In this document: positions 774-31,268 of the stretch, in pieces
How positions within the stretch are numbered: position 1 is the first letter of the stretch
How the letters are laid out: each line of letters starts with the position of its first letter
The notes under the pieces: model-generated
What the model saw: the letters and a program-made list of their open reading frames with translations, nothing else
Told to the model about the DNA's origin: nothing
Database searches by the model: none
Source of the DNA: a virus
Lineage: Duplodnaviria; Heunggongvirae; Uroviricota; Caudoviricetes
Virus record (IMG/VR): IMGVR_UViG_2872152978_000007
Reading direction: 5' to 3' (one strand)
DNA length: 31,815 bases
Made by a program: the position numbers and the translations under genes

Positions 774-2311
774 ATGAGCAGCTCACTTCCTGACGATATC
801 AATGCACTGAAACGTCTCCTTGCCGAACAGGAGGCGCTGAACCGTGCCCTGCTGGAAAAGCTGAACGAGCGTGAACGCGAAATAGACCATCTGCAGGCAC
901 AGCTGGATAAGCTGCGCCGGATGAACTTCGGCAGCCGCTCCGAAAAAGTCTCCCGTCGTATCGCACAGATGGAAGCTGACCTGAAGGCACTTCAGAAAGA
1001 AAGTGATACCCTTACCGGTCGGGTTGACGACCCGGCCGTGCAGCGCCCGCTGCGTCAAACCCGCACCCGCAAACCGTTCCCCGAATCACTCCCCCGCGAT
1101 GAAAAACGGCTGCTGCCGGCAGCGTCATGCTGCCCGGAATGTGGAGGCTCACTGAGCTATCCGGGTGAGGATGCCGCCGAACAGCTGGAGTTGATGCGCA
1201 GCGTCTTCCGGGTTATCCGGACTGTACGTGAAAAGCATGCCTGTACTCAGTGCGATGCCATCGTGCAGGCCCCGCGCCTTCACGGCCCATCGAGCGGGGT
1301 ATCGCAGGACCGGGGCTGCTGGCCCGCGTGCTGATCTCAAAGTATGCAGAGCACACCCCGCTGTACCGCCAGTCTGAAATGTACGGCCGCCAGGGCGTGG
1401 AGCTGAGTCGTTCACTGCTGTCGGGCTGGGTGGATGCATGCTGCCGGCTACTGTCACCGCTGGAAGAAGCGCTTCAGGATTATGTGCTGACTGACGGTAA
1501 GCTCCATGCTGATGACACGCCTGTCCCGGTGCTGTTGCCAGGCAATAAGAAAACGAAGACCGGGCGGTTATGGACCTACGTTCGTGACGACCGTAACGCC
1601 GGGTCAACGCTGGCGCCGGCGGTGTGGTTCGCTTACAGCCCGGACAGAAAAGGCATCCATCCGCAGACCCATCTTGCGGGGTTCAGTGGTGTACTGCAGG
1701 CGGATGCATACGCCGGGTTCAACGAGCTGTACCGGGATGGCCGGATAACGGAAGCCGCCTGTTGGGCTCACGCCCGCCGTAAAATCCACGATGTGCACGT
1801 TCGCACCCCGTCAGCCCTGACGGAGGAAGCGCTGAAACGGATCGGCGAACTGTACGCCATCGAGGCAGAGATAAGGGGAATGACGGCGGAGCAGCGCCTT
1901 GCCGAACGTCAGTTGAAAACGAAACCGCTGCTGAAATCCCTGGAAAGCTGGCTGCGTGAAAAGATGAAAACCCTGTCGCGACACTCAGAACTGGCGAAAG
2001 CGTTCGCATACGCCCTGAACCAGTGGCCGGCGCTGACGTACTATGCAGATGATAGCTGGGCTGAGGCGGACAATAACATCGCTGAAAATGCGTTGCGGAT
2101 GGTCAGTCTGGGCCGCAAAAACTACCTGTTCTTCGGTTCGGATCATGGAGGAGAGCGGGGAGCGCTGCTGTACAGCCTGATCGGGACGTGCAAACTGAAC
2201 GGAGTGGAGCCAGAAAGCTACCTCCGCTATGTCCTTGACGTCATAGCCGACTGGCCGATAAACCGGGTCGGCGAACTGCTCCCCTGGCGCGTAGCACTGC
2301 CGACTGAATAA
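774..2311 (+). pseudogene. tnpC: IS66-family transposase TnpC, frameshifted
   Basis: Split into ORFs 774..1334 and 1250..2311; copy 2 has one intact 512-aa ORF (17870..19408). Copy 1 has a run of 4 C at 1270..1273 where copy 2 has 5 (G5 at 18908..18912 on the plus strand). Confidence 0.85.
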
Positions 2312-2348
2312 CACATCCCCGTCAATACGGTTCTTGCTGCACGCTTAC

Positions 2349-3492
2349 GCTGATGCTGAGTATTAACGGGAAAAGCGTCAGCATTGAAGTGAATTTTAAC
2401 GGTGTCGCCAGCTTCGCCGCTGCTGCAACGGCACTACAGACAGCGCTGACCGCAGCAGTGGCTACAGTGGTATTCGATACCACACAGAATGCTTTTGTCA
2501 TTACTGTCGCCGGGGCGAAACCCGGGAGTACCACGATAACGTTCGGCAGTGGATCGGCAGCAGAACTCCTGAAGATGACCAGTAACACCGGTGCGGTGAT
2601 ATCCCGGGGCGCGCCTGTATCTGATGTCCCTGACACAATGGCAGCCATTAAGGCCGCTTCCCAGCAATGGGCGGGTTTTTCCACGGTATCTGAGGTCACT
2701 GACGAGCAACACCTGGCGTTTTCTGCATGGGCAAACGGGCAGGGCAAGCGTTACTTTAATGTGGCATGGACAACCAGCGGCAACGCCAGAGTAAAAGGCA
2801 GTACTGAACACATCGCTTACCAGATAATTGCTGTCAATAACTACAGCTCTGTTGTACCTGTTTTCGCGACTGATGGTAACCGGGCTGCAGCGGTACTGGG
2901 GTATGCAGCGTGCCTTGATTTTATCCGACCAGAGGGGCGTGTATCATTCAAGTTCCGCGAGTATGAGGGGCTGGCCGCTGATGTTACCAGTGGCAGCGAT
3001 TATGATGCGCTGATCGCCGCAGGTTACAATTTCTACGGAAAATATGCGGAAAACAGTGTGGTGGAAGATTACTGGGCGGATGGCACTATTACCGGTGATT
3101 TTAAATGGCTGGACAGTTTCTGCGGGCAAATCTGGCTGAATGCCAGTTTGCAGGGGGCGGTGATCGCATTATTCAAGTCAAACCAGACGGTCCCCTACAA
3201 CAATGAAGGGCGGGCGCTGGTTGCAGCGTCAATGAGTGACGTTATCCAGCAGTACAAACGCTGGGGAGGGATCCGTGAAGGGGTGACACTGACGGAGGCG
3301 CAGAAGAAACAGATTAACAATGTTGTGGAGGCAGATGTTTCTTCAACGTTGTTTGCCACCGGCTATTACCTGTATATCGGCGATATGCTTCCCTCTTTGC
3401 GGGCAACCCGTAGCAGTCCGTCCTGTACGCTCTGGTACTGTGACGGCGGTAGTATCCAGAAACTTGTTATTGCATCCACGGAGGTCCAGTAA
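2349..3492 (+). pseudogene. Contractile tail sheath protein, C-terminal 378 codons (Mu gpL-like), separated from its N-terminus by IS66 insertion and inversion
   Basis: ORF begins immediately after the IS66 end; joins in frame through the 8-bp duplication GCTGATGC with the minus-strand N-terminal fragment 20274..20622, reconstructing a 494-aa protein; followed by a tube gene as in sheath-tube operons. Confidence 0.8.
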
Positions 3493-3677
3493 ATGTCGGG
3501 TAACAACAACACCATCACTGCGGCGGATGCCATTATCACGCTGACAGTGAATAATCTGTATCCCTCCGGCGTACGACTTCAGGGATTTGCAACAGATAAC
3601 GTTTATGGCACCGATCCACTGGTACTGGCGGAAACTGCCCGCGGTATTGACGGTAAACTGTCGGTAATGACTCCAAC

Positions 3678-4073
3678 TTACTGATAGTGTTTTATGTTCA
3701 GATAATGCCCGATGACCTTGTCATGCAGCTCCACCGATTTTGAGAACGACAGTGACTTCCGTCCCAGCCTTGCCAGATGTTGTCTCAGATTCAGATTATG
3801 TCGCTCAATGCGCTGAGTGTAACGCTTGCTGATAACGTGCAGCTTTCCCTTCAGGCGTGATTCATACAGCGGCCAGCCATCCGTCATCCATACCACGACC
3901 TCAAAGGCCGACAGCAGGCTCAGAAGACGCTCCAGTGTGGCCAGAGTGCGTTCACCGAAGACGTGCGCCACAACCGTCCTCCGTATCCTGTCATACGCGT
4001 AAAACAGCCAGCGCTGACGTGATTTAGCACCGACGTAGCCCCACTGTTCGTCCATTTCAGCGCAGACAATCAC
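3678..4073 (-). CDS. insB: IS1 InsB
   Basis: [31 protein letters not shown]...KHYQ. Confidence 0.9.
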
Positions 4074-4099
4074 ATCACTGCCCGGTTGTATGCGCGAGG

Positions 4100-4375
4100 T
4101 TACCGACTGCGGCCTGAGTTTTTTAAGTGACGGAAAACCGTGTTGAGGTCAACGCCCATAATGCGTGCACTGGCGCGACATCCGACGCCATTCATGGCCA
4201 TATCAATGATTTTCTGGTGCGTACCGGGCTGAGAGGCGGTGTAAGTGAACTGTAGTTGCCATGTTTTACGGCAATGAGAGCAGAGATAGCGCTGATGTCC
4301 GGCAGTGCTTTTGCCGTTACGCACCACGCCTTCAGTAGCGGAGCAGGAAGGACATCTGATGGAAATGGAAGCCAC
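4100..4375 (-). CDS. insA: IS1 InsA
   Basis: [43 protein letters not shown]... Confidence 0.9.
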
Positions 4376-4713
4376 GCAAGCACCTTAAAATCACCATCAT
4401 ACACTAAATCAGTAAGTTGGCAGCATTACCAAACTGTCCGCGGGATTTGTGTACAGCAACATTATCCAGACGTTTCATATCATGCCGGATTCCCCCAGCC
4501 GGGATATTTTTGATACCTGGTCAACCACATCCGGGCCAGTCGGGCTGTATTCCGTTGTAACGCTGTCGTCCTGCTTCCGGCGATTGGCCGTAAATATACC
4601 TGCGTGAATGGCGTACTCAAACAATGGAAAGCGCTGCCTGATGCAGCTCGTACGTTGCAGCCAGGGCAGGCGGTTATTGAGTGGGAAACCATTACTCCGG
4701 AGGTTTTTAACTG

Positions 4714-5118
4714 ATGGCCCGTAAAGAGAAATTTATCACTATTGAAGGTCAGGGACGGGATAAGGGCAAGGTATTTCATCTTACCGAAATGTCTGCCTCA
4801 CAGGCGGAATGGTGGGCGATGCGTGCCATTATGGCAATGGGGCGTGGTGGCGTGGAGTTACCGGATGATGTTCGTAGTCTGGGGATGGCTGCGCTTGCCC
4901 TTGAAGGGCTGAAAGCATTATCGAAAATTCCGCCTGATGAGGCGCGTCCGTTGATGGATGAAATGATGGACTGTGTGCAGTTTGTTCCCGATCCGAAAAA
5001 ACGCAGCATCCGGAGACCGCTTGTTGAAGAGGATATTGAAGAAATCATTACCCGTCTTAATCTGCGTGCGGAGGTCTTTAAGCTGCATGTGGATTTTTTC
5101 GCTACCGTCGTCAGCTAG
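4714..5118 (+). CDS. Tail assembly chaperone (between tube and tape measure)
   Basis: 134-aa ORF; start overlaps the upstream stop (TGATG); position and size fit the conserved chaperone of contractile/long-tailed phages. Confidence 0.55.
   Translation: MARKEKFITIEGQGRDKGKVFHLTEMSASQAEWWAMRAIMAMGRGGVELPDDVRSLGMAALALEGLKALSKIPPDEARPLMDEMMDCVQFVPDPKKRSIRRPLVEEDIEEIITRLNLRAEVFKLHVDFFATVVS
5094..5100 (+). other. Candidate -1 programmed ribosomal frameshift slippery heptamer T_TTT_TTC
   Basis: Zero-frame codons GAT TTT TTC; the -1 frame is open from here to 5342 (about 83 codons) and overlaps the tape-measure start, the G/GT-type arrangement. Confidence 0.45.
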
Positions 5119-5325
5119 ATATCCCCCCGCGTTATCTCGACCCCGACAGACCGTTCGGGGTGGTGGATTACGTTAATGTTCCCCGTACCATTGCGACCGT
5201 TATCTCCTCCGGTAAGGCTTCAAAAGCTGAACTGGATTCTGTCCTTGGTGTGCAGGACTTATGGGATCTGCTGGAAATAATTCATGTGGATGCCCATAAC
5301 GAACAGGTGATACAGGAGAACAGAA

Positions 5326-7346
5326 ATGGCGCAGGTACTTGATGAGCTTGTTCTGTCCCTCGGGATTGATGACAGGGACTTTACTGCCGGGGAACAGGCA
5401 GTACATGCTGCCCTTAACCGGCTCACGACGGTGATGGAAGGTGTCGCTGACACATTCAGTCAGGGACAGAAGAAAACCAGTGAATCACTGGAAAAAACCG
5501 GAAAAGATGCTGATAAAACGGCCCGTCGAATGGAAGATGCCGGGAAACGGGCGTCCCGTTTTTTTTCAGGAATCCGTAGCGAGATTCTGGCTCTTGCGGG
5601 TGTCAGTCTGACGCTGGGGGGGCTGAAGAACCTGGTAACAGGTTTTGCCCGTGATCTGAACCGTCTGTCCGTGGAATCCGATGCTTTTGGCATGAAGGCC
5701 AGAAATCTGGACGGATGGTTACGGGCTGCGCGGGCAAATAATGTTGATGAAGGGGAAATGTCTGGGGCATTTTCCCGGCTTGCAAATGCAAAAGCGGCCT
5801 TCAGAGCCGGAAGGTCCTTTGATCCTGTGTTACAGGATTTGTTTCAGGTTGCAGCCAGGGCGGGCATTAGTGTTGATTTAAATACTGACAGCACTGAAGC
5901 CATCATGCGCAAGCTGGCGGTTATTTTTCCGCGACTGACAAAGTCCGAACAAACTGCCTACGGCAACGCGCTGGGCTTCAGTTATGCCGGACAGCAGTTT
6001 CTTGGCTCCGGTCATGCGCTGAAAGATGTGGACGAATTTACTTCCCGTTCGCAGGTTACGCCGGGGCGTACAGCGCTGGCCCGTAAGCTACGAAAAGAGC
6101 TTGTTGAGCTCGATCAGACCTGGTCCGGCATCGGGATGACGATTAGCACCGCGTTGATGCCGTACGCGCTGAAGCTCAGCCACTGGCTGGAGACACTCGG
6201 TGACTGGATGCAGCAACATCCGGAGGAAGTGAACAGGTTTATCACCACATTTCTGAATGACGTTGAGTCAGTGGCCTCCCTAGCGAATAAGGCTGCCGGA
6301 GAACTGGGGGCTGGCAGAATGTCATTATTACGCTGATCGGGCTGAAAGTGGCGTCATGGGTGCGGGGGCTGACAAAAGCCCTCAGTGGCCCCGGAGGCCT
6401 TCTTTTTGCGATAACGGCGCTTTACCCGGTTGTTGACGGATTACTGACATCCATTGTTGGCAGGGAAAATAAGGACTGGCTGGATTCACATGGTTTTTTC
6501 TGGGCTTCAGACGGGACTTTCTTTTTCAATAAGAAAGAGATGGAGACGTATCAGACAAAACTGGATGCCGGAGAAAAGCCTGGCAACATCACCCGGGCAC
6601 AATCACCCACAGTATGGCAGCAGGGCATGCTGGATACTCAGGCTTCTCAGGCAACCGGGAGGGAAGCAGCCTTCGGTGAATCCTGGCTACAGGGTATGCG
6701 TGCGACGCAGGAAAAACTCGGTAATGCCATGCAAAACCGCCAGCGACCGACGAAGACCGGGGAAGCCCTGTTAGGCTGGCTGCAACCGAAACTGTCTCAA
6801 CTGGAGGAAAAATATAACCTGCCGCCCGGACTGCTGCGCAGCGTTGCGATCACCGAATCCCGTGGTAATCAGTTTGCCGTCTCACCTGCTGGTGCGATGG
6901 GACTGTTTCAGTTCATGCCGAAGACGGCCAGTGAATTTGGTCTGAGGGGGAACGATGCCTTTGATCCCGAAAAAGCCGCTGATGCCGCCGCGAGAAAACT
7001 TGGTGGCCTGATACGTTTTTTTCATGGCGATCTGGCTAAGGCTCTGGCGGCATATAACTGTGGAGAGGGAAATGTTCAGCGTAAGGGACTGGCTGCTGCT
7101 CCGGAGGAGACCCGCAACTATATTCCGCGGGTGCTGGCGAACCTGCCTTATCCGGGTGCGGCAATGGCCATACGGTCGCTCCATCCTGCGCCTGTATCGC
7201 AGTCCACCGTAACGGAAACCACGCATATCGGGACACTGAATGTCACCACAACGTCGGACAATGTGAAGGGTATTACCGATGACGCACGTCGGCGTATCAC
7301 GAATTCGGCGCTTGTGTCGGTTTATTCCAGCGGGGTAACAGGATGA
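5326..7346 (+). pseudogene. Tail tape measure protein with C-terminal lytic transglycosylase (SLT) domain; frameshifted near 6290..6320
   Basis: ORFs 5326..6336 and 6348..7346 in different frames; downstream frame is open back to a stop at 6288..6290; G5 run at 6306..6310; SLT motif LLRSVAITESRGNQFAVSPAGAMGLFQFMP...AYNCGEGNV in the second part. Confidence 0.65.
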
Positions 7347-8080
7347 GTTTTTCTTTCGATAATATTTCCCTGAATAACTTTTCGCTCAGTGAAAGTAACG
7401 TACTGAGTGCAGTTCGTGGCGGCTGTGTCCTGGGACTCATTAATAGTGTACTGGCACCGTCATTCGGTATTTATTACGCACGGAATGATCCGGCAGGTGC
7501 CCATCAGAAGGGTGGCAAACCTTTCTCCCCGGATTCTTTTGTTGTCGTTGAGGTGGGCGCGGAGGCTTCTGTTTCCACCGTCCCCGTGGAGCAGGGGGCT
7601 TATACCACCTTTAATAAAATCCAGAGATCGCCGGAACTGCATGTGACTTTCACTGTAGAGGGGTGGACGGCCTTTTCCGGATCCGTCCCGAACCTGACAA
7701 ATTTTTCCACCACCTCGCGGACGAATGTGCTGGAAACGCTTGAAAGGATGCGTACCACGGCAGGACTCTACGATATTGAGACGCCGGACAAGACATGGAC
7801 ATCCTGCGACCTTGTGAAATATGACTACCGAATGCGAAGTAATAATGGTCCGACCTTACTGACGGTTACTGCGGTATTTCAGACCGTAATGAATACAGGA
7901 GAGGTGTCAGTGGGAAGTACGGATAAGTCGTCTCCCACGGACAACGATAAAGCAAAAGGGGCCGCATCGGTTAAAACGCAGCCAGTTACGGCGTCGGTGA
8001 CACAACCGTCAGACGCTGACAGACGAAGCGCCACGAACAGGGGATCACCTGATGCTGGAAATTGTTTTATCTCCCGTTAA
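7343..8080 (+). CDS. Phage tail/baseplate protein (unassigned)
   Basis: 245-aa ORF, ATGA overlap with tape measure; position after tape measure in a Mu-like tail module. Confidence 0.45.
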
Positions 8081-8354
8081 AGCCCAGCAGTTTACGGTGA
8101 CACTGGGCGCTCAGGTCTGCACCATTCGCCTGAATCAGCGTACTACGGGGATGTATATCGATATCATTGTTAATGGTGAACCGTGCCTGTATGGCGTGCT
8201 GTGTCTGAATAATAACCGGATTGTCCGGTACGGATACCTGCCGTTTCAGGGGGACCTGTTTTTTACCGACACGGAGGGGAATAGTGACCCTGACTGGCGG
8301 GGGCTCGGATCCCGGTACCGGCTCTACTGGCTGTTACCTGAGGAACTGATATGA
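8052..8354 (+). CDS. Phage tail/baseplate protein (small, unassigned)
   Basis: 100-aa ORF overlapping its neighbours, typical phage operon packing. Confidence 0.4.
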
Positions 8355-9220
8355 GCTACAGACAACGTAAAATAACGGTGGAGTTCACTCTTTCAGACGG
8401 ACGAACGTTTGGTAATGGCCAGGGCAATATGCTGACCATTACCGACGCAAGCTGTTTTGCCAGTATTGCCGTATATGGAGGGGTGGCTGGTACACAAATC
8501 ACGCTGTATATCTGGGGAATGTCACCGGCGCATATGACGAATTTAAGCTGGCGCGGTGTGTGGCGACAGGAGCAGAGTACCGAAAATAAAATGCGGCTGT
8601 GGGCCGACGGGCGGCTTATTTTTGAAGGTGATATTACTGATGCATACGCCGACTACAACCAGGCGCCGGATATTCCGCTCATTCTGACAGGACAGATTCA
8701 TTTTAATCTGCGTAATCAGCCGGCGGCAGATTTCAGCGCAAAGGGCGATGTTGCGGTTGCAGATATTATCCGTGCGCTGGCGTCAACTGTCGGGCTTGGA
8801 TTTGAAAACCAGGGGGTCAGCCGCAGTCTGTCTGACCCGCATTTTTCCGGTAATGTTGTACAACAAATGCTGGATGTCGCTTCAGCCGCCGATATTAACA
8901 TTGATCTGGGGAATGTGGAGAAAGTCACCATCTGGCCGAAAGGGCAGAACCGGAATATTCCGCCGGTACTGATTTCGCCGGATCACGGACTGACTGGCTA
9001 TCCGGTTTACACCATGACCGGACTCAGCGCCACCACGATATTCTGCCCCGATCTCTTTACTGGCAGGCCAGCGCATCTGGAATCGTCACTGCCTGATATG
9101 ACGGGCGATTATACGATCACAGGGGTGATACACACCATTACTTCGCGAACCGTGGGCGGTCCGTGGAGTTCCAACTGTACCATGATGAGGGCTGAAGAAA
9201 ATGGCACAACCACTCAGTAA
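8351..9220 (+). CDS. Phage baseplate protein (unassigned)
   Basis: 289-aa ORF with ATGA overlap upstream; precedes the gpV-like spike gene. Confidence 0.5.
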
Positions 9221-9790
9221 CCCGACAGACGTGAACAGCGAAATCAATGCACAGGACTTTATGCTGCGGCAGTTTCTCGGACGTCATGCGTTTATCACTC
9301 TGGGACGGGTGGTAGCCGTGGAAGAGGGATTTATTGAGGCCCGACCGATGGTAATGGGCGTTGCAGCAGACGGTTCCCCGGTTGAACATGAGGTGATTTA
9401 TAACATTCCCGTATGGCGACTACAGGGGGGCGGTAATGCGGTGATTATCCCGCCACATGTGGGGGATATCGGTTTTCTTGCCATCTGGCTGGGTGGCGTG
9501 CTCAACGGTGATCCCGTCCAGTTTGTGGTATTTGATGACAACCAGATACGGATTGTATCTCCCTGGAAAGTGGAGATATCCGCGCCTGAGGGGGTGATTA
9601 ATGCGCCGAAAAGCTTCACCGTTAACTCACCACAAATTGCGCTGAACGGCGATACCGCCGTCAGTAAGGGGCTTGACGTTACCGGGCAGTCCAGGCTTTC
9701 CGGCGGTTCGAACATCGGGGTATTGATTTTGGAAACCACGTTCACGGCGGCGTTGAGTCCGGCGGCTCAACCACGCAGGGATCCCGGTAA
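9201..9790 (+). pseudogene. Baseplate spike/assembly protein V-like (Mu gp45 / P2 gpV family), frameshifted
   Basis: N-terminal frame runs from 9201; the C-terminus ...IDFGNHVHGGVESGGSTTQGSR (resembling the gpV C-terminal H-x-H...SGG..TG motif) is in another frame ending at the TAA at 9788..9790; switch point is the G4 run at 9717..9720. Confidence 0.6.
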
Positions 9791-9802
9791 ACAGGAGAAA
9801 AC

Positions 9803-10158
9803 ATGCAGTCACGATCACTTCTTCTTGACACCGGGACATGGGATATCCTGCTTGATGATACCGGAAATCTTGCCATTACTGATAATCCCCATGCGGTAGC
9901 TCAGGATGTGGCGTGTGCGTGCAGTACTTTTCTGGGGAGTGCTGGTACGACTCAACGGCTGGCATACCTTACTGGCCACGCATCCTCGGACACTGGCCCG
10001 GCACACAACTGGTGAATGCCACTCTGCAACAGGAAGCACTTAAACTGCCGACCGTGAGCGCCGCTGTCTGCCAGGTCACAGCTGATCAAACCCGGACAGT
10101 AACAGGTGTGCTGCGTATTACAGATACCAATAATGACATTTTTACGGTACTGCTATGA
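9803..10158 (+). pseudogene. Mu gp46-like baseplate protein, probably frameshifted
   Basis: ATG at 9803 with AGGAG upstream; ORFs 9803..10015 and 9913..10158 in different frames cover one gene-sized interval. Confidence 0.45.
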
Positions 10159-11392
10159 GTGAAAATAAATCTTTTTCTACCGCAGTGCCCGCTGTACAGA
10201 TTTCGGATAGCGGGCTGAATGTGCCGGATGAAGCGGATATTCTGAGCGGCAGGCTTGCTGATTTTTCGGCGGCGCTGGGCGGGGCCATGAGTACCAGTCT
10301 GAGCAGTCCGCAGGGACAACTTGCATCCAGCGAAAGCGCCATTATTGCGGATAAAAACGATCAGTTGCTGTATATCGTTAACCAGATCAACCCTGACTTT
10401 TCCAGTGGTCGCTTTCAGGATGCAATAGGCAGGATTTATTTCCTGGAGCGCCGTGGGGCCACAGGTACGACAGTAACAGCGACCTGTACCGGGCTGGTTG
10501 GCACGCTGATCCCGGCGGGCAGTATGGGGCAGGATGAGGCCGGTTATAAGTATGTCAGTCAGACGTCACTATCGGCGCATCAGGGCAGGTTGATGCGGTA
10601 TTTCTGAATTTGTCCACCGGCCCCGTCGGCTGTCCTGTGGGGACGCTGAATAAAATTTATAAGGCAATACCTGGCTGGTCAGGTGTCACTAACGCCCGTG
10701 CCGGTGTGCCGGGCAGCGATGAGGAAACCCGTGCGGACTTTGAAAACCGCCGACGTAATTCAGTTGCCCGTAATGCCCGGAATATTCTGGAAGCCATCCG
10801 GGGTGAAATACTCTCCACGGTAGAAAACGTGGTGGATGTTTACGTCACCCATAATCCGAAAAAAACAGAACAAAAAGCCGGAGTCAGTCAGTATCCATTA
10901 ACACCCGGTTCGCTTTATGTTGGCGTGTACGGCGGCAGCCCGGCAGATATCGCGGCGGCCATCTGGCGTAAGGCTCCGCCGGGTATTGATATGAATGGCA
11001 ACACAACGTTCACTGTTGCAGATAAGGAGTACGATCCGCCGTATCCTGAATACGTAATCAGCTGGCAGACACTCAAACCCGTCAGTCTGCATGTCAGTGT
11101 GACGCTGAAAAAAAGTGACTACCTGCCTTCAGATATTACCCGACAGGTACAGCAATCCGTGCTGGACGCATTTAATGGTACAGATGGTGGTCTGCGGGCA
11201 AGGGTTGCCTCTGTTGTCTCTGCCGGGCGCTACTATGCCGGCATTTACAAAACCGATCCGGAACATATTGATATTCTGGGCCTTACTGTGAGCCGTGACG
11301 GTTCGTCATGGACAACGGCTGTCACTTTCGGGATAGATGAGATTCCGGTTCTGGATGTGTCGGATATCAGTGTGAAACTCCAGGAGGCATAA
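10155..11392 (+). pseudogene. Baseplate J-like protein (Mu gp47 family), probably frameshifted near 10550..10610
   Basis: ORFs 10155..10607 and 10610..11392 abut in different frames; second frame is open back to a stop at 10547..10549. Confidence 0.55.
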
Positions 11393-11688
11393 CGTGCAGA
11401 ATGTGGCTGCCACTGTGCTTGCGCAGTATGCTGCCAGCCCCGACTCAATGCCCTCATTAACAGCTTTAACGCAGCGCTTTCCCCCGACAGTTTTATCAGT
11501 GATTTTTATGGTCTTATCTGGAACATCGATACCGCAGAAAAGTATGGTCTTGATGTCTGGGGAAAGATTGTGGGTGTCAGTCGCCGGCTGACGGTAAAGG
11601 ACGATTTTAATTACCTGGGCTTCAGCGAGTCCAGGATGGACACCCCGGTAATGGATGATCCCTGTCCGTTTAATCAGTGGATTTGCCC

Positions 11689-12594
11689 CTATATTTCCAG
11701 ACATCTGTTATCACTTAACCCATTACAAGCCCGCTGCCGCAGATATTCCCGTGGCGAGCGATAACCCAGCGCACTATGCGGATGCCATTCGTTATAATGC
11801 TCGAACGCCTCTGCAAGGTTCTTTGCTGCCGTTAACCCGTCTGGTTTGGGCATGATACTGATGTAGTCACGCTTTATCGTTTTCACGAAGCTCTCTGCTA
11901 TTCCGTTACTCTCCGGACTCCGCACCGCCGTGTTCTTCGGTTCAAGTCCCAACATCCGGGCGAACTGGCGTGTTTCATTAGCCCGGTAGCATGAACCATT
12001 ATCCGTCAGCCACTCCACTGGAGACGACGGAAGATCGTTGCCGAAGCGGCGTTCCACCGCTCCCAGCATGACGTCCTGTACTGTTTCACTGTTGAAGCCG
12101 CCGGTAGTCACCGCCCAGTGCAGTGCCTCACGATCACAGCAGTCCAGCGCGAACGTGACACGCAGTCTCTCTCCGTTATCACAGCAGAACTCGAACCCGT
12201 CAGAGCACCATCGCTGATTGCTTTCTTTCACGGCCACTCTGCCTGTATGTGCCCGTTTCGATGGCGGTACAGCAGGCTTTCGCTCAAGCAACAGCGCATT
12301 CTGGCGCATGATCCGGTAAACACGTTTGGCATTGATCGCAGGCATACCATCAAGTTCTGCCTGTCTGCGAAGCAGCGCCCATACCCGACGATAACCATAC
12401 GTGGGCAGCTCTCCGATAACATGGTGTATACGGAGAAGCACATCCGTATCATCAGTGTGACGACTGCGGCGGCCATCCATCCAGTCATCAGTTCGTCTGA
12501 GAATGACGTGCAACTGCGCACGCGACATCCGGAGACAACGGCTGACTAAGCTTACTCCCCATCCCCGGGCAATAAGGGCGCGTGCGCTATCCAC
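11689..12594 (-). CDS. insD: IS2 transposase InsD (orfB)
   Basis: 301-aa ORF ...[39 protein letters not shown]... Confidence 0.9.
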
Positions 12595-15160: not shown

Positions 15161-15204
15161 CCTCGCGCATACAGCCGGGCAGTGACGTCATCGTCTGCGC
15201 GGAA

Positions 15205-17832: not shown

Positions 17833-17869
17833 GTAAGCGTGCAGCAAGAACCGTATTGACGGGGATGTG

Positions 17870-19408: not shown

Positions 19409-19456
19409 ACCGGGTATATTACCAGGCTCATTCAGCGTCGACCAGGATAAAGAGGC

Positions 19457-19804
19457 TTACAACATAGTCAGGGACGTAAGCAGTCTTTTAGGCTGCCGCC
19501 AGTCGATACCTTCAAGGAGCATCGCCAGCTGTGCCGGTGTGAGGAACACTTTGCCATCCCGGGCTGACGGCCAGGCGAAGCGGCCGCGCTCCAGCCGTTT
19601 GGTCAGCAGACACAGTCCATCGCCGGTAGACCAGAGGAGCTTTACCTGACTGCCATTACGCCCACGGAAGATAAAAACGTGACCTGACATCGGATCGTCT
19701 TTCAGCGTCGTCTGCACCTTTGCCGCCAGGCCGTTGAAGCCATTTCTCATATCGGTGATACCGGCAACCAGCCAAATTTTGGTCCCGGAAGGTAACGGGA
19801 TCAT
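19457..19804 (-). CDS. tnpB: IS66-family TnpB
   Basis: 115-aa ORF identical to 378..725. Confidence 0.9.
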   Translation of the reverse strand: MIPLPSGTKIWLVAGITDMRNGFNGLAAKVQTTLKDDPMSGHVFIFRGRNGSQVKLLWSTGDGLCLLTKRLERGRFAWPSARDGKVFLTPAQLAMLLEGIDWRQPKRLLTSLTML

Positions 19805-20202
19805 CGCTTCAGTTCCTGTATCAGCAGAGTCAGGAGCTTTTCGCTGACATTGCCATTGAAGCGGAGCGTCCCGTGCCGGAACGTTACCTCACAGCTGATA
19901 CTGAGGGTTTCCGGATCCTCTGCGAGCGATTCTGGCTGTTCGGCAGCTGCATCGAGAGTCACAGGAAGTAGCTGGGGGCTCTCTGAAGAAGGTAATAGCA
20001 GCTTTCCCTCGCGCCATTGTTGTCGCCATTTGAACAACAGATTGGCGTTAATGCCATTTTCAAGAGCAAGTTTTGAGATGGATATCCCGGGTTCACAGGA
20101 GGCAGCAACGAGCTGCTGTTTAAATTCGGGAGGATAATTAGGGCAGCCTTTTCGCCTGCCGGGATTCACATTTTTCTGCATATCTGACACTTTGGTTCCC
20201 AC
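19801..20202 (-). CDS. tnpA: IS66-family TnpA
   Basis: 133-aa ORF MGTKVSDMQKNVNPGRRKGCPNYPPEFKQQL... Confidence 0.85.
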   Translation of the reverse strand: MGTKVSDMQKNVNPGRRKGCPNYPPEFKQQLVAASCEPGISISKLALENGINANLLFKWRQQWREGKLLLPSSESPQLLPVTLDAAAEQPESLAEDPETLSISCEVTFRHGTLRFNGNVSEKLLTLLIQELKR

Positions 20203-20273
20203 TACTTATTTGGTGGACACCACTTTGTCTAATTCGTCAGATTCTGACCAGACGGTTCAGGCTGTACGCTTAC

Positions 20274-20622
20274 GCATCAGCGTGCCGGAAAGTTTTTGTA
20301 GCTGTTCAACAGTCGCGCCCTTAAACGAACCGCTACGTAACCAGGCCGCCGATGGGGCAGGACTGAAACGGGAAAACAACAATTGCCCCGGCGTCCTGGT
20401 GGCATTTTTGAAGCCCTGGAAATAAAGCTGAGCGCGTGCGTACTCATCGGATAATGCACCAAAATACGCGGCCACATCATCCGGAGAGGAAAACGGAACC
20501 ACAGTGCCGACCGGAAGTAACGGATTACTGGTCAACAGCAGGCCGTTAAGATCGACGGCATTACCCGCCACAGCCAGCACACCGGGATTTATCTGTACAT
20601 CTTTACTGAGTGGAATTGGCAT
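20274..20622 (-). pseudogene. Contractile tail sheath protein, N-terminal 116 codons
   Basis: ATG at 20622 with GGAGG upstream; MPIPLSKDVQINPGVLAVAGNAVDLNGLL...KLSGTLM reads directly into the IS66 terminus; the 8 bp at 20274..20281 (GCATCAGC) are the exact reverse complement of 2349..2356. Confidence 0.8.
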
Positions 20623-21148
20623 TATCAGCCTCCGTTGTCCGGGTGATCACGTTGTCAAAAAACATCAGGGAAGTTGTGACCACAGGGTTAATCTGCATCT
20701 GAATATCAAGCGTCCAGCGCGGTTCATACTGTTGCTGACCGTTGGGGAATGTGGTGTTAAAGGGCTCTGAGCAATACAGCGGGGAAATCAGCCCACCGCC
20801 CTGCCGGAAAAGCCGTACGGAAAATTCAGACCGGAAAAGCGTTGCCAGCACCTGAGCGTTATCTGCCGCGTGAGGGCCGTAGAAATCAAGCTGGCAACGC
20901 CATTTTGTGGTACGGGTGATATGCTGAGAGCCCTCACCAGCCTGCGCTGGCGCAGAATATGCCACTACCGCAGTGGATAATCCGGTAACATCAATGCCCG
21001 TCATGGTGATGAAATTCCCCTGAGGCATCGGGACCTGGTTCTGCTGCGTTCGTTCAATCCCGGCATCAGAAAAAAGCCCCCGGTGATAATCACCGAGGGC
21101 CTGATAAAGAGCGCTTTCCGTAACGGAGAGGGTCACACCTGAAGGCAT
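20603..21148 (-). CDS. Phage morphogenesis-module protein immediately upstream of sheath
   Basis: 181-aa ORF overlapping the sheath start, same strand and operon. Confidence 0.5.
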   Translation of the reverse strand: MPSGVTLSVTESALYQALGDYHRGLFSDAGIERTQQNQVPMPQGNFITMTGIDVTGLSTAVVAYSAPAQAGEGSQHITRTTKWRCQLDFYGPHAADNAQVLATLFRSEFSVRLFRQGGGLISPLYCSEPFNTTFPNGQQQYEPRWTLDIQMQINPVVTTSLMFFDNVITRTTEADNANSTQ

Positions 21149-21498
21149 ACAATAACCCTCGTCCAGTCAGGCCAGATTTCCAGTACCTCAATCACCAGCC
21201 ACGTTTCATCGCCAATAACAAATTTATCGCCTCCCTGTTGCCGGGCACGGTTAAGCCCGCACCAGTTACCATCGGTATACAATGTGGCGAAAACTCCCTG
21301 CTGGTTAAGATTATCAAGATGACGTAAATCAGCCTGGGTGACAGCCTGCTTTTGCCCCCTGACGGAAACCGGATCTTCATACTCAGGTACGCGGGAATAA
21401 TCTGCCTGCTGTGTACTCCCGCGGGAACGATAAACCAGCGCGTCTGTAAAGGGATTTACCCGACGTACTGCGCCGGAAACAATACCGTGAAAGTTCAT
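21133..21498 (-). CDS. Phage structural-module protein (unassigned)
   Basis: 121-aa ORF overlapping both neighbours. Confidence 0.45.
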   Translation of the reverse strand: MNFHGIVSGAVRRVNPFTDALVYRSRGSTQQADYSRVPEYEDPVSVRGQKQAVTQADLRHLDNLNQQGVFATLYTDGNWCGLNRARQQGGDKFVIGDETWLVIEVLEIWPDWTRVIVCLQV

Positions 21499-21749
21499 TT
21501 TTTGCCCCCGTCTACAGAATAATCAACGCTGTCCATCATATGTCCGGTTTCAATAAGCGGGTTGTTAAAACCCTTTTGCCGGGCAGTGGATGCAGCGTTG
21601 GACGGACTTTCCCAGTCGCGAACAGACATCTGCAACTGCCCTTTGATATGTTCTCCCATACACACCAGAGCGGTCGCAGTATCAAAATCATTCGCCCGTA
21701 ATAAGGTCGCCATTTTTTCGCCCCATTCGGGACTTTTATGTTCGATCAT
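21495..21749 (-). CDS. Phage structural-module protein (unassigned)
   Basis: 84-aa ORF with ATGA-type overlap. Confidence 0.45.
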   Translation of the reverse strand: MIEHKSPEWGEKMATLLRANDFDTATALVCMGEHIKGQLQMSVRDWESPSNAASTARQKGFNNPLIETGHMMDSVDYSVDGGKK

Positions 21750-22078
21750 CTTACGGAAGAACGGACGGGGGGAATGGTGACCGTGTGCTCAGGAATAACC
21801 ACATCCTGAACAAAATTCCCTTTACCGGCTTTGACAAAGCGGTGCCCGGTTTCTCCCGTTTTTTCGTTATAGCGAAAGTGGAGCGTCTGCTCACGGGCGG
21901 GTATGACCGCTCTTCCACCAAACTCCTGAACTGCGGCAATATAAGCCACTGACGTACCGTCAGGGTAAGTTGCTCCCTCAAGAAAACCCACTTTGAGTTT
22001 TTTACCCAATGAAAGGTTCGCGGCAACCTGTTTCAGCTTCTGCCGGAACTGTTTGCCACCTGTGACTTTATTTACCAT
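21746..22078 (-). CDS. Phage virion morphogenesis / head-tail joining-like protein
   Basis: Likely start [41 protein letters not shown]... at 22078; the longer track ORF (to 22366) is an upstream out-of-frame extension. Confidence 0.45.
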
Positions 22079-22544
22079 CGACGCCCCCTCCCGTATCCCC
22101 GGTAATAATGCCCCGGATATCGCGAAGGTGCCCCCCGGAATGATACTGCATTGAGCGGTATGGCGCTGTCGCCTGCCAGTAGTCAGCACCCCAGGGGGTC
22201 TGGAGATACCACCACGACGCATCATTACTGCCGCTATTATCCACCGATACCGATACCGATACCGATACCGATACAGAACCTTCCGACGCACTGGTGATAC
22301 GCCCCACCAGACCAGCCTGCCCGTCTCTCCCGTTTCCCAGCCCCCGCAATGCGCACAGATGCGCAACCAGCAGGAACAGAAGCTGTTCCCGCTCCTTCAG
22401 GTCGGTAACCGGACTGTCGTCCGTGTTATCCAGGTACAACGCGGTCGCCCGGTTAAACACCGCCGTCAGTAGCTCCGGTGTCACCGTGGAAAACTCCGGG
22501 TACAGACTGACAAACATCCGACAGTCAAACGTCACCGTACCCAT
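22068..22544 (-). CDS. Phage protein carrying an internal (Ser-Val)n repeat
   Basis: 158-aa ORF; ...[19 protein letters not shown]... encoded by the hexanucleotide tandem repeat at 22244..22273. Confidence 0.5.
22244..22273. repeat. Perfect hexanucleotide tandem repeat (CCGATA)5 within a coding sequence
   Basis: ccgataccgataccgataccgataccgata read directly from the sequence; in frame, so copy-number change keeps the reading frame. Confidence 0.95.
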
Positions 22545-22549
22545 AGCGT

Positions 22550-23841
<1,292 letters not shown>

Positions 23842-24133
23842 AGCCTCACCTCCGCAAATAACGGATGGCGTAGTTTTACACTGAGAAATGAAAGGGATTT
23901 GAAAAGAAAAAAACGCAAAAGCGGGCGAAACGATATATACAGTAAGGAAAGCACTCTATCCAACAAACCACCCACAGTTAATCGGAATAAAAGCAGAGTG
24001 CTTATGAATGATCGCACGCCCGAAGGTTAGTATTTCTGCACAGCAATTTTGCAAAAAAAGGCGATCATTCATAACTTAAACGTCTTTCAGTCACTCCGGG
24101 ATTTCCCATCATCGCAGACTGAAAGACTCTGAC

Positions 24134-24208
<75 letters not shown>

Positions 24209-24211
24209 ATA

Positions 24212-24287
<76 letters not shown>

Positions 24288-24289
24288 GC

Positions 24290-24366
24290 TGGCCCACCAC
24301 CGAGGACTCGAACCTCGCACCGTCAACTTAGAAGGTTGATGCTCTATCCGGATGAGCTAGTGGTGG
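24290..24366 (-). tRNA. tRNA-Arg (anticodon UCU)
   Basis: Reverse complement CCACCACTAGCTCATCCGGATAGAGCATCAACCTTCTAAGTTGACGGTGCGAGGTTCGAGTCCTCGGTGGTGGGCCA; 7-bp acceptor stem, anticodon loop CTTCTAA; unusual C1-G72 first pair. Confidence 0.75.
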
Positions 24367-24367
24367 T

Positions 24368-24444
24368 TGGTGGCCCTTGCTGGACTTGAACCAGCGACCT
24401 GGCGATTATGAGTCGCTCGCTCTGACCAACTGAGCTAAAGGGCC
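24368..24444 (-). tRNA. tRNA-Ile2/Met-like (anticodon CAU; ileX/ileZ-like)
   Basis: Reverse complement GGCCCTTTAGCTCAGTTGGTCAGAGCGAGCGACTCATAATCGCCAGGTCGCTGGTTCAAGTCCAGCAAGGGCCACCA; anticodon loop CTCATAA; resembles chromosomal ileX. Confidence 0.8.
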
Positions 24445-24532
24445 GGAGGCAGAATAATAACCATATGTCATCACATCTGCAAACTCATCTGACCACCAGC
24501 ACGTTTAACGTCCTGTGCCGTTTTTCAGGTAT

Positions 24533-24554
24533 AAAAAAACCCGCATAAAGCGGG
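24533..24554 (-). terminator. Rho-independent terminator, minus strand (tR'-like position upstream of tRNAs and holin)
   Basis: Minus strand reads CCCGC-TTTAT-GCGGG followed by 7 T (plus-strand aaaaaaacccgcataaagcggg). Confidence 0.6.
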
Positions 24555-24580
24555 CTCTTTCAAATGTCCATGTGAAGTGG

Positions 24581-25749
<1,169 letters not shown>

Positions 25750-25821
25750 TGGAGCACCTGTGTTGTTCTGAGGTGAGCATATCACCTCTGTTCAGGTGGC
25801 CAAATTCAGTGTGCCACTTCA

Positions 25822-26159
25822 CTGATAAAAGCGCCCTGTACTGGTTAGCAATAGCAAATTTACTTCCAGCTGCTCTGATTTCAAGAAAGCTGTACACCTC
25901 CCTTATGCCTATATTTTTAACCGGAACACCACCAAAGTATTCACTTATGATTTTCAACCTCTGGTTGTGTCTTTTCATGGTGTTTGTGCTTAATTGTCTA
26001 CGCTCTATTTCATTTCTGAAATTTAATATCAGCTCGCAGAATAATGTTACGCTATTACCTTTTATTCTATCCAGTAAGCTTATATGTTGCGTGGATAATA
26101 ATTCCATATTTGCCGCAATAGCCTCATTAACTGCAATTCTTTTGTCTCTTCCGATTCCA
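25822..26159 (-). pseudogene. AT-rich internal fragment of an integrase/recombinase-like gene, truncated at both ends by IS911 and IS1
   Basis: Open frame ...LSTNTMKRHNQRLKIISEYFGGVPVKNIGIREVYSFLEIRA... resembles the N-terminal core-binding domain of tyrosine recombinases; no start or stop of its own. Confidence 0.3.
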
Positions 26160-26174
26160 GGTGATGACTCCAAC

Positions 26175-26570
26175 TTACTGATAGTGTTTTATGTTCAGAT
26201 AATGCCCGATGACCTTGTCATGCAGCTCCACCGATTTTGAGAACGACAGTGACTTCCGTCCCAGCCTTGCCAGATGTTGTCTCAGATTCAGATTATGTCG
26301 CTCAATGCGCTGAGTGTAACGCTTGCTGATAACGTGCAGCTTTCCCTTCAGGCGTGATTCATACAGCGGCCAGCCATCCGTCATCCATACCACGACCTCA
26401 AAGGCCGACAGCAGGCTCAGAAGACGCTCCAGTGTGGCCAGAGTGCGTTCACCGAAGACGTGCGCCACAACCGTCCTCCGTATCCTGTCATACGCGTAAA
26501 ACAGCCAGCGCTGACGTGATTTAGCACCGACGTAGCCCCACTGTTCGTCCATTTCAGCGCAGACAATCAC
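26175..26570 (-). CDS. insB: IS1 InsB
   Basis: Same protein as copy A InsB; the track ORF extends upstream in the InsAB' frame. Confidence 0.85.
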
Positions 26571-28531: not shown

Positions 28532-29077
28532 TTATTTTAAGGAAAGCAACTGCTCTACGGTCATGTTTTTAATTGCGCCCCGGTTTACAAGAGTCCAGCC
28601 CTGTTTTTCCAGATAAAACCAGAAAGTCTCCAGGGTACAGACCAGTGCGCCATCAGGAACGGTTTCGGTGAATTCGACATTGCCGAATTTGTCGAAGTGA
28701 ACAACCAGAGTGCGACCATCACCCGGAATCATCTTGTCAGCAGGTGGGGTGTTATTCTGGCGCAGTTCGGCCTCCATGCGGTCGAACTCAGCAATGTAGG
28801 CTTCCTTGAATGTGGCGGCTTTTTTGCCCGTGAAGCCCATCACCAGGAAAACGAAGCCGTTTTTGGTGATTTGGTAGGCGTTATAAGAATTGCCGCGGTG
28901 TTCGAATTTAACCCGCGAAAAGTTGCTGGTTAAAAATAGTTCAGAACATTCGAGGGATTCTATTTTTTGAACAACATGGTGATGCTGCTTGCCAAAAAAC
29001 TCAGCAATCGAAATAGAAGTAGTGACGGCGCGACCATTTTCGATGGTTACGTCAGGGTGAGAAAGGGTGGTAGCCAT
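28532..29077 (-). CDS. Rha-family phage regulatory protein (antirepressor-like)
   Basis: Likely start MATTLSHPDVTIENGRAVTTSISIAEFFGKQHHHVVQKIESL... (track ORF extends upstream to 29236); Rha-type N-terminal motif. Confidence 0.55.
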   Translation of the reverse strand: MATTLSHPDVTIENGRAVTTSISIAEFFGKQHHHVVQKIESLECSELFLTSNFSRVKFEHRGNSYNAYQITKNGFVFLVMGFTGKKAATFKEAYIAEFDRMEAELRQNNTPPADKMIPGDGRTLVVHFDKFGNVEFTETVPDGALVCTLETFWFYLEKQGWTLVNRGAIKNMTVEQLLSLK

Positions 29078-29243
29078 AATGACATCCTCAAGTGATAAGT
29101 TAATTAACTCACCAGCAGAGGTGCTAATCTCATGGGTGGTGAGACGCACAGGGTTAGCACTACCGGTCACTCGAGAACCCGGCCAGCCTTGCGGCTGCCC
29201 CGCACGCCTCACCATAATTTGAATGTGGCTGTGCATTACGCAT

Positions 29244-29268
29244 AAAAAAAAACCGCTTCAGCGCGGTT
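29244..29268 (-). terminator. Rho-independent terminator, minus strand
   Basis: Minus strand reads AACCGC-GCTGAA-GCGGTT followed by a T run (plus-strand aaaaaaaaaccgcttcagcgcggtt). Confidence 0.5.
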
Positions 29269-29395
29269 ATGCGCTCGAGTAACTTTCGGGGTGCTAATCC
29301 CGGCGCCCGTTTTATGAGGTGCAGGTGCATTATAATTCCACCCGTTCTGGTTTTCAATAGCTACATTCAACATTTTCTCTTTCCTTTCATCACCG

Positions 29396-30001: not shown

Positions 30002-30149
30002 CGTGCGGTGTCTTGATGAATGAAATTTAGAATAACCTAAGGTGTTGGGTTAAGATTTTATGTAGAAAAACCTAAGTTTTTTTGATGTAAAAAACACAAG
30101 TGTTTGAAAGTTTGTGCTTTTTATTGCAGGGTGTGGAGAAAAAAGGGGA

Positions 30150-30557
30150 TTATTTGTTTGCGCTTCTTTTGCGAGCTTTGAGTAGTTCTTCAAAAAGTTT
30201 GTTGAAATTTTCAACTCGAGCACGCATCTCTGACAACAGGGCCTTTTGCTCTGACTCAGGCAGTGCGTCGAACAGTTGAAGTAACTCTTTTTGATCTTCT
30301 GTCAGAATGGCTGGCTGATTATCCGGGATCGGTTCGCCTGGTTGTTTATCTTCATCCCCAAAAAGAAGCCAAGTCGGTGAGCACTGAAGCGCTTGGCTCA
30401 GTGCGAATAATCTTTTCCCCGCCGGCTGTGTTTCATCTCTTTCCCATTGAGAAATTGTTACGTGAGCCACTTTGACCAGCTTACCTAATGCGGCCTGAGA
30501 CAGTTTTAATTTTTTACGCCTATGTAAGAGGCGAGCACCGAAGGTTTCGTTTTTCAT
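30150..30557 (-). CDS. dicA: DicA-like helix-turn-helix prophage repressor
   Basis: 135-aa ORF MKNETFGARLLHRRKKLKLSQAALGKLVKVAHVTISQWERDETQPAGKRLFALSQALQCSPTWLLFGDEDKQ...PESEQKALLSEMRARVENFNKLFEELLKARKRSANK, closely recalling E. coli Qin DicA. Confidence 0.8.
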   Translation of the reverse strand: MKNETFGARLLHRRKKLKLSQAALGKLVKVAHVTISQWERDETQPAGKRLFALSQALQCSPTWLLFGDEDKQPGEPIPDNQPAILTEDQKELLQLFDALPESEQKALLSEMRARVENFNKLFEELLKARKRSANK

Positions 30558-30633
30558 ATTAGGGAATTCTAATTTTTCTTGACTTAGGTTTCTCTACGAT
30601 CTAGTTTCCTTAGGAAAATCTAAGGAGCTCGAT
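30558..30633. promoter_or_regulatory. Divergent promoter/operator region between the dicA-like and dicC-like genes
   Basis: TTGACT at 30579..30584; dyad CCTTAG-gaaaat-CTAAGG at 30608..30625; CTTAGG/CCTAAG cores recur at 30583..30590 and downstream of dicA at 30035..30042 and 30069..30076. Confidence 0.5.
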
Positions 30634-30862
30634 ATGTTGAAAATTGATGCTATAGCGTTTTTTGGCAGCAAAACAAAGCATTGCCAATGCCGCAGGAGTT
30701 AGGCTGGCAAGCATTGCTGCATGGGGGGAACTGGTTCCTGAAGGTCGCGCGATGCGCCTGCAAGAGGCATCTGGCGGGGAACTTCAGTACGACCCCAAAG
30801 TTTATGACGAATATCGTAAGGCAAAACGACCTGGGAAGGTGATTCATGAAAATCAGGCATGA
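30634..30862 (+). pseudogene. dicC: DicC-like Cro-type regulator, frameshifted near 30679
   Basis: ATG at 30634 with AAGGA upstream gives MLKIDAIAFFGSKTK then stops; the next frame continues ...ANAAGVRLASIAAWGELVPEGRAMRLQEASGGELQYDPKVYDEYRKAKRPGKVIHENQA. Confidence 0.6.
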
Positions 30863-31268
30863 GCACATCGAATCAGTGCTGTTAGCCCTGGCAGCCGAAA
30901 AAGGGCAGGCGTGGGTCGCTAACGCAATTACTGAAGAATATCTGCGGCAGGGGGGCGGCGAATTGCCTCTGGTACCAGGCAAGGACTGGAACAATCAGCA
31001 GAATATCTATCACCGTTGGTTGAAAGGTGAAACGAAAGCGCAAAGGGAAAAAATTCAGAAACTGATCCCTGCGGTTCTGGCAATTCTTCCGCGTGAGCTG
31101 CGTCACCGACTCTGTATCTTCGATACCCTGGAACGCCGTGCATTACTGGCGGCGCAGGAAGCGTTGAGTACGGCAATTGATGCGCATGATGACGCAGTTC
31201 AGGCCGTTTACCGGAAAGCACATTTCAGCGGTGGTGGGTCGTCCGACGATTCTGTCGTTGTGCATTGA
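30846..31268 (+). CDS. ydaT: YdaT-like prophage protein
   Basis: 140-aa ORF MKIRHEHIESVLLALAAEKGQAWVANAITEEYLRQGGGELPLVPGKDWNNQQNIYHRWLKGET..., recalling E. coli Rac YdaT; overlaps the dicC-like stop. Confidence 0.6.
   Translation: MKIRHEHIESVLLALAAEKGQAWVANAITEEYLRQGGGELPLVPGKDWNNQQNIYHRWLKGETKAQREKIQKLIPAVLAILPRELRHRLCIFDTLERRALLAAQEALSTAIDAHDDAVQAVYRKAHFSGGGSSDDSVVVH

Follow-up and report, generated by a model that had tools for sequence, protein, structure and literature searches.

Probable long-read consensus errors and inherited lesions in a defective prophage of Shigella dysenteriae

The 31,815-nucleotide stretch of DNA analysed here (the window, IMG/VR record IMGVR_UViG_2872152978_000007) is part of the Shigella dysenteriae chromosome CP026840.1 (GCA_002950155.1, 4,716,399 bp), in which it starts near record position 3,399,389. 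It represents a defective E217/Pam3-like contractile-tail prophage and an adjacent Rac-like lambdoid remnant. The lesions of the window fall into two classes: single-base deletions in runs of G or C, and real lesions inherited by descent. Judged from sequence comparisons, the frameshifts in the G/C runs are very probably consensus errors of a long-read assembly, which are not present in the DNA of the organism; eight or nine of the deletions are almost certainly such artefacts. The original prediction had offered prophage decay and systematic homopolymer error as alternatives, and both appear to hold, at different sites: the breaks at G/C runs are best read as artefacts, those in the gp47-like and dicC-like genes as real.

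Shortened G/C runs and their counterparts in related genomes

The prophage is found in unbroken form in enteroinvasive E. coli (EIEC), for example in CFSAN029787 and RMDEC465, with 98-99% identity. Relative to EIEC the window carries 1-bp deletions at 4531-32, 6306, 8040, 9717, 9934, 11438, 21767-72 and 22131, a 1-bp insertion at 22084, the loss of GTCA (4 bp) at 10554-61, an 87-bp in-frame deletion at about 9479-9487 and an 18-bp repeat expansion. Comparison with EIEC alone makes the indels visible, yet it cannot separate lineage-specific mutation from error, and close S. dysenteriae relatives were used instead.

Nine near-identical drafts (loci L004-L012) were found via their identical baseplate hub protein (8351-9220), six from NCBI (PUGT01, AERM01, PUGV01, LAIG01, QXHW01, ACBQES01) and three from Logan (SRR8186610, ERR6005832, SRR28424797). 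Compared with positions 4157-14828 of the window they show 0-1 substitutions over 6.7-10.4 kb, and they share its insertion sequence (IS) elements IS1 and IS2, the 87-bp deletion, the GTCA deletion and the C2 at 4531-32. All nine drafts have one more base at 6306, 8040, 9717, 9934 and 11438, which restores all five frames, and the corresponding gene calls are 673, 236, 196 and 118 amino acids (aa) in the drafts vs. 336+332, 245, 232 and 70+81 aa in the window. Between 4431 and 11676 (about 7.2 kb) there is no substitution private to the window, as against five indels absent from the drafts. A comparison of run lengths with orthologous genes of related genomes had been proposed as a check when the breaks were first noticed, and at the G/C sites it gave longer, frame-restoring runs.

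In the whole window we found nine single-base deletions, at 1270, 6306, 8040, 9717, 9934, 11438, 21767-72, 22131-36 and 23547, each in a G/C run with a true length of at least five. Eight of these are private to CP026840.1 when comparable assemblies are considered, and the ninth (21767-72) recurs only in other long-read assemblies and in two Logan assemblies of other lineages. When the nine bases were restored in 21.8 kb of comparable sequence, 9 of the 39 G/C runs of at least five bases were shortened, compared to 0 of 93 A/T runs of at least five bases and 0 of 475 G/C runs of three or four (Fisher p = 8e-6). All nine events are deletions, and G/C runs of at least five bases make up just 0.96% of the compared bases. 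The changes thus go in one direction, are confined to homopolymers and come with no excess of substitutions, which is the pattern of an artefact. The genes affected are the following.

774-1334 and 1250-2311, + strand: tnpC of IS66 copy 1, split by C4 at 1270-1273; judged an artefact
5326-7346, + strand: tape measure / lytic transglycosylase gene, 336 aa + 332 aa, split by G5 at 6306-6310 (true G6); judged an artefact
7343-8080, + strand: Dit-like baseplate gene, altered C-terminus (245 instead of 236 aa) due to G4 at 8040-8043 (true G5); judged an artefact
9201-9899, + strand: spike gene (gpV-like), with G4 at 9717-9720 (true G5) judged an artefact, and the real 87-bp in-frame deletion between 9-bp direct repeats
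9803-10158, + strand: sheath initiator gene (gp46-like), split (70 + 81 aa) by G4 at 9934-9937 (true G5); judged an artefact
11394-13334, + strand: DUF2612 / wedge gene (gp48-like), with C4 at 11438-11441 (true C5) judged an artefact, and a real IS2 insertion at 11677-13000
21495-22078, - strand: head-proximal gene of 194 aa, broken at 21767-21772 by G6 in place of G7 (110 + 84 aa); probably an artefact
22068-22544, - strand: DUF4054 gene (E217_gp27-like), C6 at 22131-22136; likely an artefact
22898-23627, + strand: fragment of an IS3-family (IS911-like) element, C4 at 23547-23550 (true C5); judged an artefact

The original prediction had named the runs at 1270-1273, 6306-6310, 9717-9720 and 23547-23550, all of which are present at frame breaks, and the C4 of the gp48-like gene, which exists but had been placed at 11437..11440, one base off. 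The further breaks that it mentioned, in the gp46-like gene (G4 at 9934-9937), the gp47-like gene (GTCA loss at 10554-10561) and the dicC-like gene (extra A at 30680), were also found. It had missed the breaks at G4 8040-8043, G6 21767-21772, C6 22131-22136, C2 4531-4532 and A9 29244-29252.

The two IS66 copies of the window were predicted to have a single coding difference, and the alignment of copy 1 (1-2349) with copy 2 (20181-17832) indeed contains 0 mismatches and 1 gap over 2350 bp. Copy 2 has C5 at the position equivalent to 1270, as do the IS66 elements in the sheath gene among the relatives listed (L013, L014, L022). The exact 186-aa tnpC fragment resulting from C4 was found only in 7 CP0268xx chromosomes, at differing IS66 insertion sites, which bears out the earlier inclination to regard this case as an artefact. 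A separate change affects the sheath-gene IS66 of L014, L020, L021 and L022: a single T, outside any homopolymer, is lost at the equivalent of 1510, and tnpC is divided into 324 + 143 aa. It is present also in a later independent assembly (CP176669) and, unlike the sporadic C4, looks like a real inherited IS66 lesion.

The G6 at 6306 occurs in both EIEC loci as well as in the drafts. Counted by exact sequence, the intact 673-aa tape measure protein is encoded on 132 contigs, the 336-aa fragment on the window contig only. We considered whether the 332-aa C-terminal fragment P0124, present on 91 E. coli/S. flexneri contigs, might be a sign of a widespread G6 to G5 change, and rejected it, as it differs from the window version by 2 residues. 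A partial N-terminal fragment from S. flexneri (P0017) stops about 15 codons ahead of the 6306 run. Both fragments probably reflect a contig break or an insertion, not the G6 to G5 frameshift. Elsewhere in the same gene, the tape measure of CFSAN029787 (L001, NZ_CP011416.1, locus 8202-10222) is labelled "frameshifted" in RefSeq, and it has G6 for G7 at the equivalent of window position 5616-5622. Five long-read assemblies of S. dysenteriae also have a shortened run here; the frameshift of CFSAN029787 is likely to be an artefact of the same kind in an unrelated record.

Contig counts for the other baseplate genes are similar. The 236-aa Dit-like protein is on 40 contigs and the 245-aa form on the window contig only. 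The 196-aa spike product encoded by the drafts was found on 19 contigs, the 232-aa product of the window on this contig only. With G5 at 9934 in 9/9 drafts the sheath initiator is intact at 118 aa, and the exact 118-aa protein is on 825 contigs. Outside the window its 70-aa product was found only in a 1.3-kb Logan contig. This contig was examined as possible independent support for G4 and was discarded: it comes from another lineage, has 3 substitutions and G5 at 9717, and carries a C-run deletion of its own. In the gp48-like gene C5 at 11438 is present in 16/16 relatives that cover the site.

The two head-proximal sites have longer runs. At 21767-72 six of nine long-read relatives have kept G7, and G6 is shared by the window with three assemblies of the same series. 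We counted 109 contigs encoding the intact 194-aa protein and 8 with the 110-aa fragment; the carriers of the fragment that were found are CP0268xx records, UGDX01 and, from other lineages, two Logan runs. At 22131-36 seven of the long-read relatives have C7 and two have C8, and C6 occurs only in the window. The 151-aa DUF4054 product is encoded on 77 contigs; the 158-aa product of the window has no exact match in the protein collection. The DUF4054 gene also contains, at 22239-22274, an 18-bp ACCGAT expansion private to the window, which has five units where both EIEC loci and all 9 S. dysenteriae relatives have two. The expansion keeps the frame, adds 6 residues and is probably real.

In the IS911-like fragment 9/9 long-read relatives covering 20274-26300 have C5 at the equivalent of 23547. 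The full IS3-family copy of the window has G5 (C5 on the other strand) at 24639-24643, and in L019 and L021 it is this run that is shortened. The earlier view that the two copies had truly diverged was half right: the two substitutions separating them are real polymorphisms, but the C4 is private to the window.

The distribution of the deletions among sister assemblies is uneven. Counted against the majority allele, G/C-run deletions in the tail module number 0 in the nine drafts, UYIT01 (National Collection of Type Cultures, NCTC), CP045784, PSSQ01 and CP026807, 2 in PSST01, 4 in CP026805, 5 in the window, about 9 in CP026815, about 12 in CP026823 and more than 20 in CP026842. The 8040 deletion recurs only in CP026823 and the 9717 deletion only in CP026815; that at 9934 recurs in CP026823, CP026805 and CP026815, that at 6306 in CP026823, CP026842 and CP026815, and that at 11438 is private to the window. 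CP026823, CP026805, CP026815 and CP026842 encode the full-length 225-aa spike (split in CP026842), which means that they do not have the 87-bp deletion and represent a different sublineage. The nearest relatives of the window have none of the G/C-run frameshifts. Such patchwork sharing fits no tree but is accounted for by recurrent, context-dependent consensus error.

Inherited lesions and natural frame breaks

The prophage is divided by IS66 elements and is followed by other IS elements and the Rac-like remnant.

1-2349, + strand: IS66-family element (ISEc22-like), copy 1, with tnpC broken at the C4
2350-17831: tail module of the E217/Pam3-like contractile-tail prophage
17832-20273, - strand: IS66 copy 2, with an intact TnpC (512 aa, C5), at the other end of the tail-module inversion
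20274-22897: head-proximal gene block of this prophage, inverted
right of 22897: IS3-family (IS911-like) fragment, holin gene, full IS3-family copy, IS1 and IS600
Rac-like immunity region: rha, cI-like gene, cro-like gene and ydaT

Frame breaks and interruptions other than the G/C-run deletions are in these genes.

2353-3492, + strand: C-terminal part of the tail sheath gene (E217_gp31-like), parted from its N-terminal part (20257-20622, - strand) by IS66 and inversion; real
3663-4430, - strand: IS1 in the tail tube gene; real
4714-5342, + strand: pair of tail assembly chaperone ORFs (134 aa and 60 aa); slippery heptamer T TTT TTC at 5094-5100
10155-11392, + strand: baseplate J gene (gp47-like), 150 + 260 aa, one GTCA unit lost at 10554-10561; real
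14830-15599, + strand: IS1 variant in the tail fibre assembly gene; real
28532-29371, - strand: Rha-family regulator gene, frame break at the A run 29244-29252
30634-30862, + strand: cro-like gene (P22_Cro; dicC-like), extra A at 30680, outside a homopolymer, frame lost after codon 15; real

The IS66 insertion in the sheath gene is common to all S. dysenteriae long-read relatives. In the tube gene remnant C2 at 4531-4532 replaces the C3 of EIEC; this is a real difference, the window allele being present in 18/18 S. dysenteriae loci. No relative departs from the window at the GTCA site in the tail-module comparisons, and the exact 150-aa gp47-like product is encoded on 150 contigs from many sources. 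The IS2 in the gp48-like gene occurs also in L005, L055 and others. CP045784 (L057) also has an IS1 somewhere within the tail fibre assembly gene.

L035 (UYIT01) and L043 (CP026834), 2 assemblies from 2 centres, have the same extra A in their cro-like gene, whereas 8 more distant loci lack it. In L037, L038 and L042 the same gene has a C-to-T change at 30785, and in two of them it is called at just 50 aa, which we read as an independent truncation. In independent assemblies of the same lineage we thus recover the IS1, IS2 and IS66 insertions, the 87-bp deletion, the GTCA deletion, the C2 at 4531-32 and the extra A at 30680. The same search made for the frameshifts in the G/C runs found none of eight sites in any short-read-like assembly of the lineage.

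Some of the breaks are no lesions at all. From the slippery site of the chaperone gene the -1 frame is open into the ORF (open reading frame) at 5160-5342, which overlaps the start of the tape measure gene, and intact EIEC prophages have the same two-ORF layout; the break is a natural programmed -1 frameshift. In the chaperone extension the C6 run at 5123-5128 is shortened in five sister long-read assemblies. The two-ORF transposase genes of the IS1, IS2, IS3-family and IS600 elements are also natural frame breaks, and in a related E. coli locus RefSeq marks those of IS600 and IS1 as programmed frameshifts.

The A run near the 5' end of rha has A9 in the window, and A8 in the two closest relatives (UYIT01, CP026834), while eight loci at greater distance have A7 and an intact gene (279 aa). 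These tract changes are insertions in an A/T run, unlike the G/C-run deletions, and may be either real or artefactual.

Origin of the shortened runs

The prophage has decayed through IS1, IS2, IS66, IS3-family and IS600 insertions, probably through inversion of the tail module between the IS66 copies, and through small inherited lesions (the 87-bp, 4-bp and 1-bp deletions and the extra A in the cro-like gene). We propose that artefact was added to this when an unpolished assembly of the PacBio RS II type under-called the length of G/C homopolymers with true lengths of 5 to 8. PMC10132075 attributes CP026832, a record of the same accession block, to Kim et al. 2018 and gives its platform as PacBio; we infer that CP026840 belongs to that set and was affected by the errors of that platform. 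Residual errors of this sort are documented: comparison of an HGAP3 + Quiver consensus with Illumina reads revealed 561 single-base homopolymer deletions (PMC4888979), and long-read errors are chiefly homopolymer indels, mostly false deletions (PMC12007338). The residual deletions of PacBio continuous long read assemblies (HGAP/Quiver) resemble those of the window in that they are deletions only, lie in homopolymers, create false frameshifts and are missing from short-read assemblies, and their density in the case of the 561 deletions, a 3.2-Mb Enterococcus genome (PMC4888979), is of the same order. The window differs from such cases in being hit only in G/C runs of at least five bases and in its higher local density (about 0.4 per kb), and its platform is presumed.

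The alternative that every frameshift is genuine, having arisen by replication slippage in the unselected prophage of this strain, seems to us very improbable. Slippage in homopolymers is the commonest natural source of indels, and the prophage is truly defective and neutral, as its IS insertions and inherited deletions indicate. Shigella is rich in pseudogenes, with 769 in M90T, 406 of them frameshifted (PMC7132871). Against genuine mutation stand the five tail-module indels absent from the drafts with zero private substitutions in the same 7.2 kb, and the restriction of nine out of nine deletions to G/C runs while the 93 long A/T runs were spared. Furthermore, the sites recur patchily in more distant strains of the same series and not in the nearest relatives, and copies of the multicopy IS66 and IS3-family elements outside the prophage are affected likewise. 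The known decay of Shigella genomes is similar to what we see in the insertions of IS1, IS2, IS3-family, IS600 and IS66 elements, the rearrangement between IS copies and the small deletions between direct repeats, all common by descent, but it explains only the non-homopolymer lesions and the C3 to C2 change at 4531-32, not the deletions in the G/C runs.

Still less probable is that the deletions arose by real -1 mutagenesis at G/C runs in the sequenced culture, through mismatch-repair deficiency or the stationary-phase activity of DNA polymerase IV (Pol IV, DinB) during decades of storage. We give as little credit to the fuller version, in which a burst struck neutral sites of historical isolates and the unequal loads of the sister assemblies reflect their storage histories. 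In E. coli, adaptive-mutation systems and the overproduction of Pol IV do yield mainly -1 deletions in short G:C runs, and the strain is historical if its accession belongs to the set of Kim et al. 2018. However, shortening 23% of the G/C runs of at least five bases without substitutions would fill the whole genome with frameshifts, a viable culture could hardly bear the load of CP026842 (more than 20 per 10.9 kb), and a historical NCTC strain of the same lineage (UYIT01) has no such deletion. Loss of mismatch repair would be expected to cause transitions and indels in A/T runs, and none were seen. That the G/C tracts serve as functional recoding or phase-variation sites is hardly credible. 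Programmed -1 sites (lambda G/GT-type chaperones, IS1 and IS3-family transposases) do cause frame breaks at homopolymer-like slippery sites, and the window contains such breaks in the chaperone pair and in the two-ORF IS transposase genes. Those sites are conserved and functional in intact relatives, whereas the G/C-run breaks lack such conservation and fall in genes which elsewhere, with the longer run, are single ORFs in intact EIEC and S. dysenteriae relatives (673, 236, 225/196, 118 and 201 aa); the single-ORF state in more than 100 independent contigs effectively refutes recoding. Most of the tracts have only 5-6 bases; they are located in the central or 3'-terminal parts of structural genes, and all their changes go the same way. 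Nor do they look like phase-variable contingency loci, as they are in phage structural genes, show deletions only and do not vary among more than 100 short-read contigs.

It must be noted that several points weigh against consensus error as the source of the shortened runs. The platform of CP026840.1 was deduced from its accession block, the run lengths of the strain from other strains and not from its reads, and the short-read nature of the draft and Logan assemblies from the interruption of their contigs at IS elements. Genuine variation is conceivable in the G7, C7/C8 and A7-A9 tracts, which are long enough for it, and C8 at the DUF4054 run occurs in a sublineage, with Logan support. A stretch of the same assembly around the phn operon (4.66 kb, L067) has no G/C-run indel, but with only 3 G/C runs of at least five bases (0.64 per kb vs. 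1.8 per kb in the prophage) it carries no weight either way.

This work reveals no new biology, the real lesions being ordinary, already known Shigella prophage decay. Its point is the data quality of a public S. dysenteriae record and of several sister records. False frameshifts at G/C runs of at least five bases inflate pseudogene counts, which are themselves used as evidence of genome decay in Shigella, and at least two truncated products hold RefSeq accessions seen in this assembly alone (WP_134807481.1 and WP_134807482.1). Studies of gene loss based on these records should begin with polishing, or with the masking of indels in G/C homopolymers.

Rearrangement and private variation in the window

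Relative to the head module, the tail module of the window (15.5 kb) is reversed, lying between IS66 copies in inverted orientation. Nine other long-read assemblies of S. dysenteriae have the two modules in collinear arrangement, with just one IS66, in the sheath gene, between them. At 2054 and 2233 the two IS66 copies of the window agree with each other but not with the IS66 of the relatives. The inversion is either a real strain-specific event with homogenised IS66 copies or an effect of assembly or polishing.

Three substitutions in the Rac-like region (28621, 29069 and 30126) occur in the window but in none of the ten relatives; the 7.2 kb of the tail module contain no such substitution. 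The two prophage remnants may differ in history, e.g. through recombination with another lambdoid prophage. At 24528, between the holin gene and the full IS3-family copy, there is a 5-bp deletion of one TTTCA direct-repeat unit, shared only with PSSQ01 and PSST01, which are therefore the closest long-read relatives of the window in that region.

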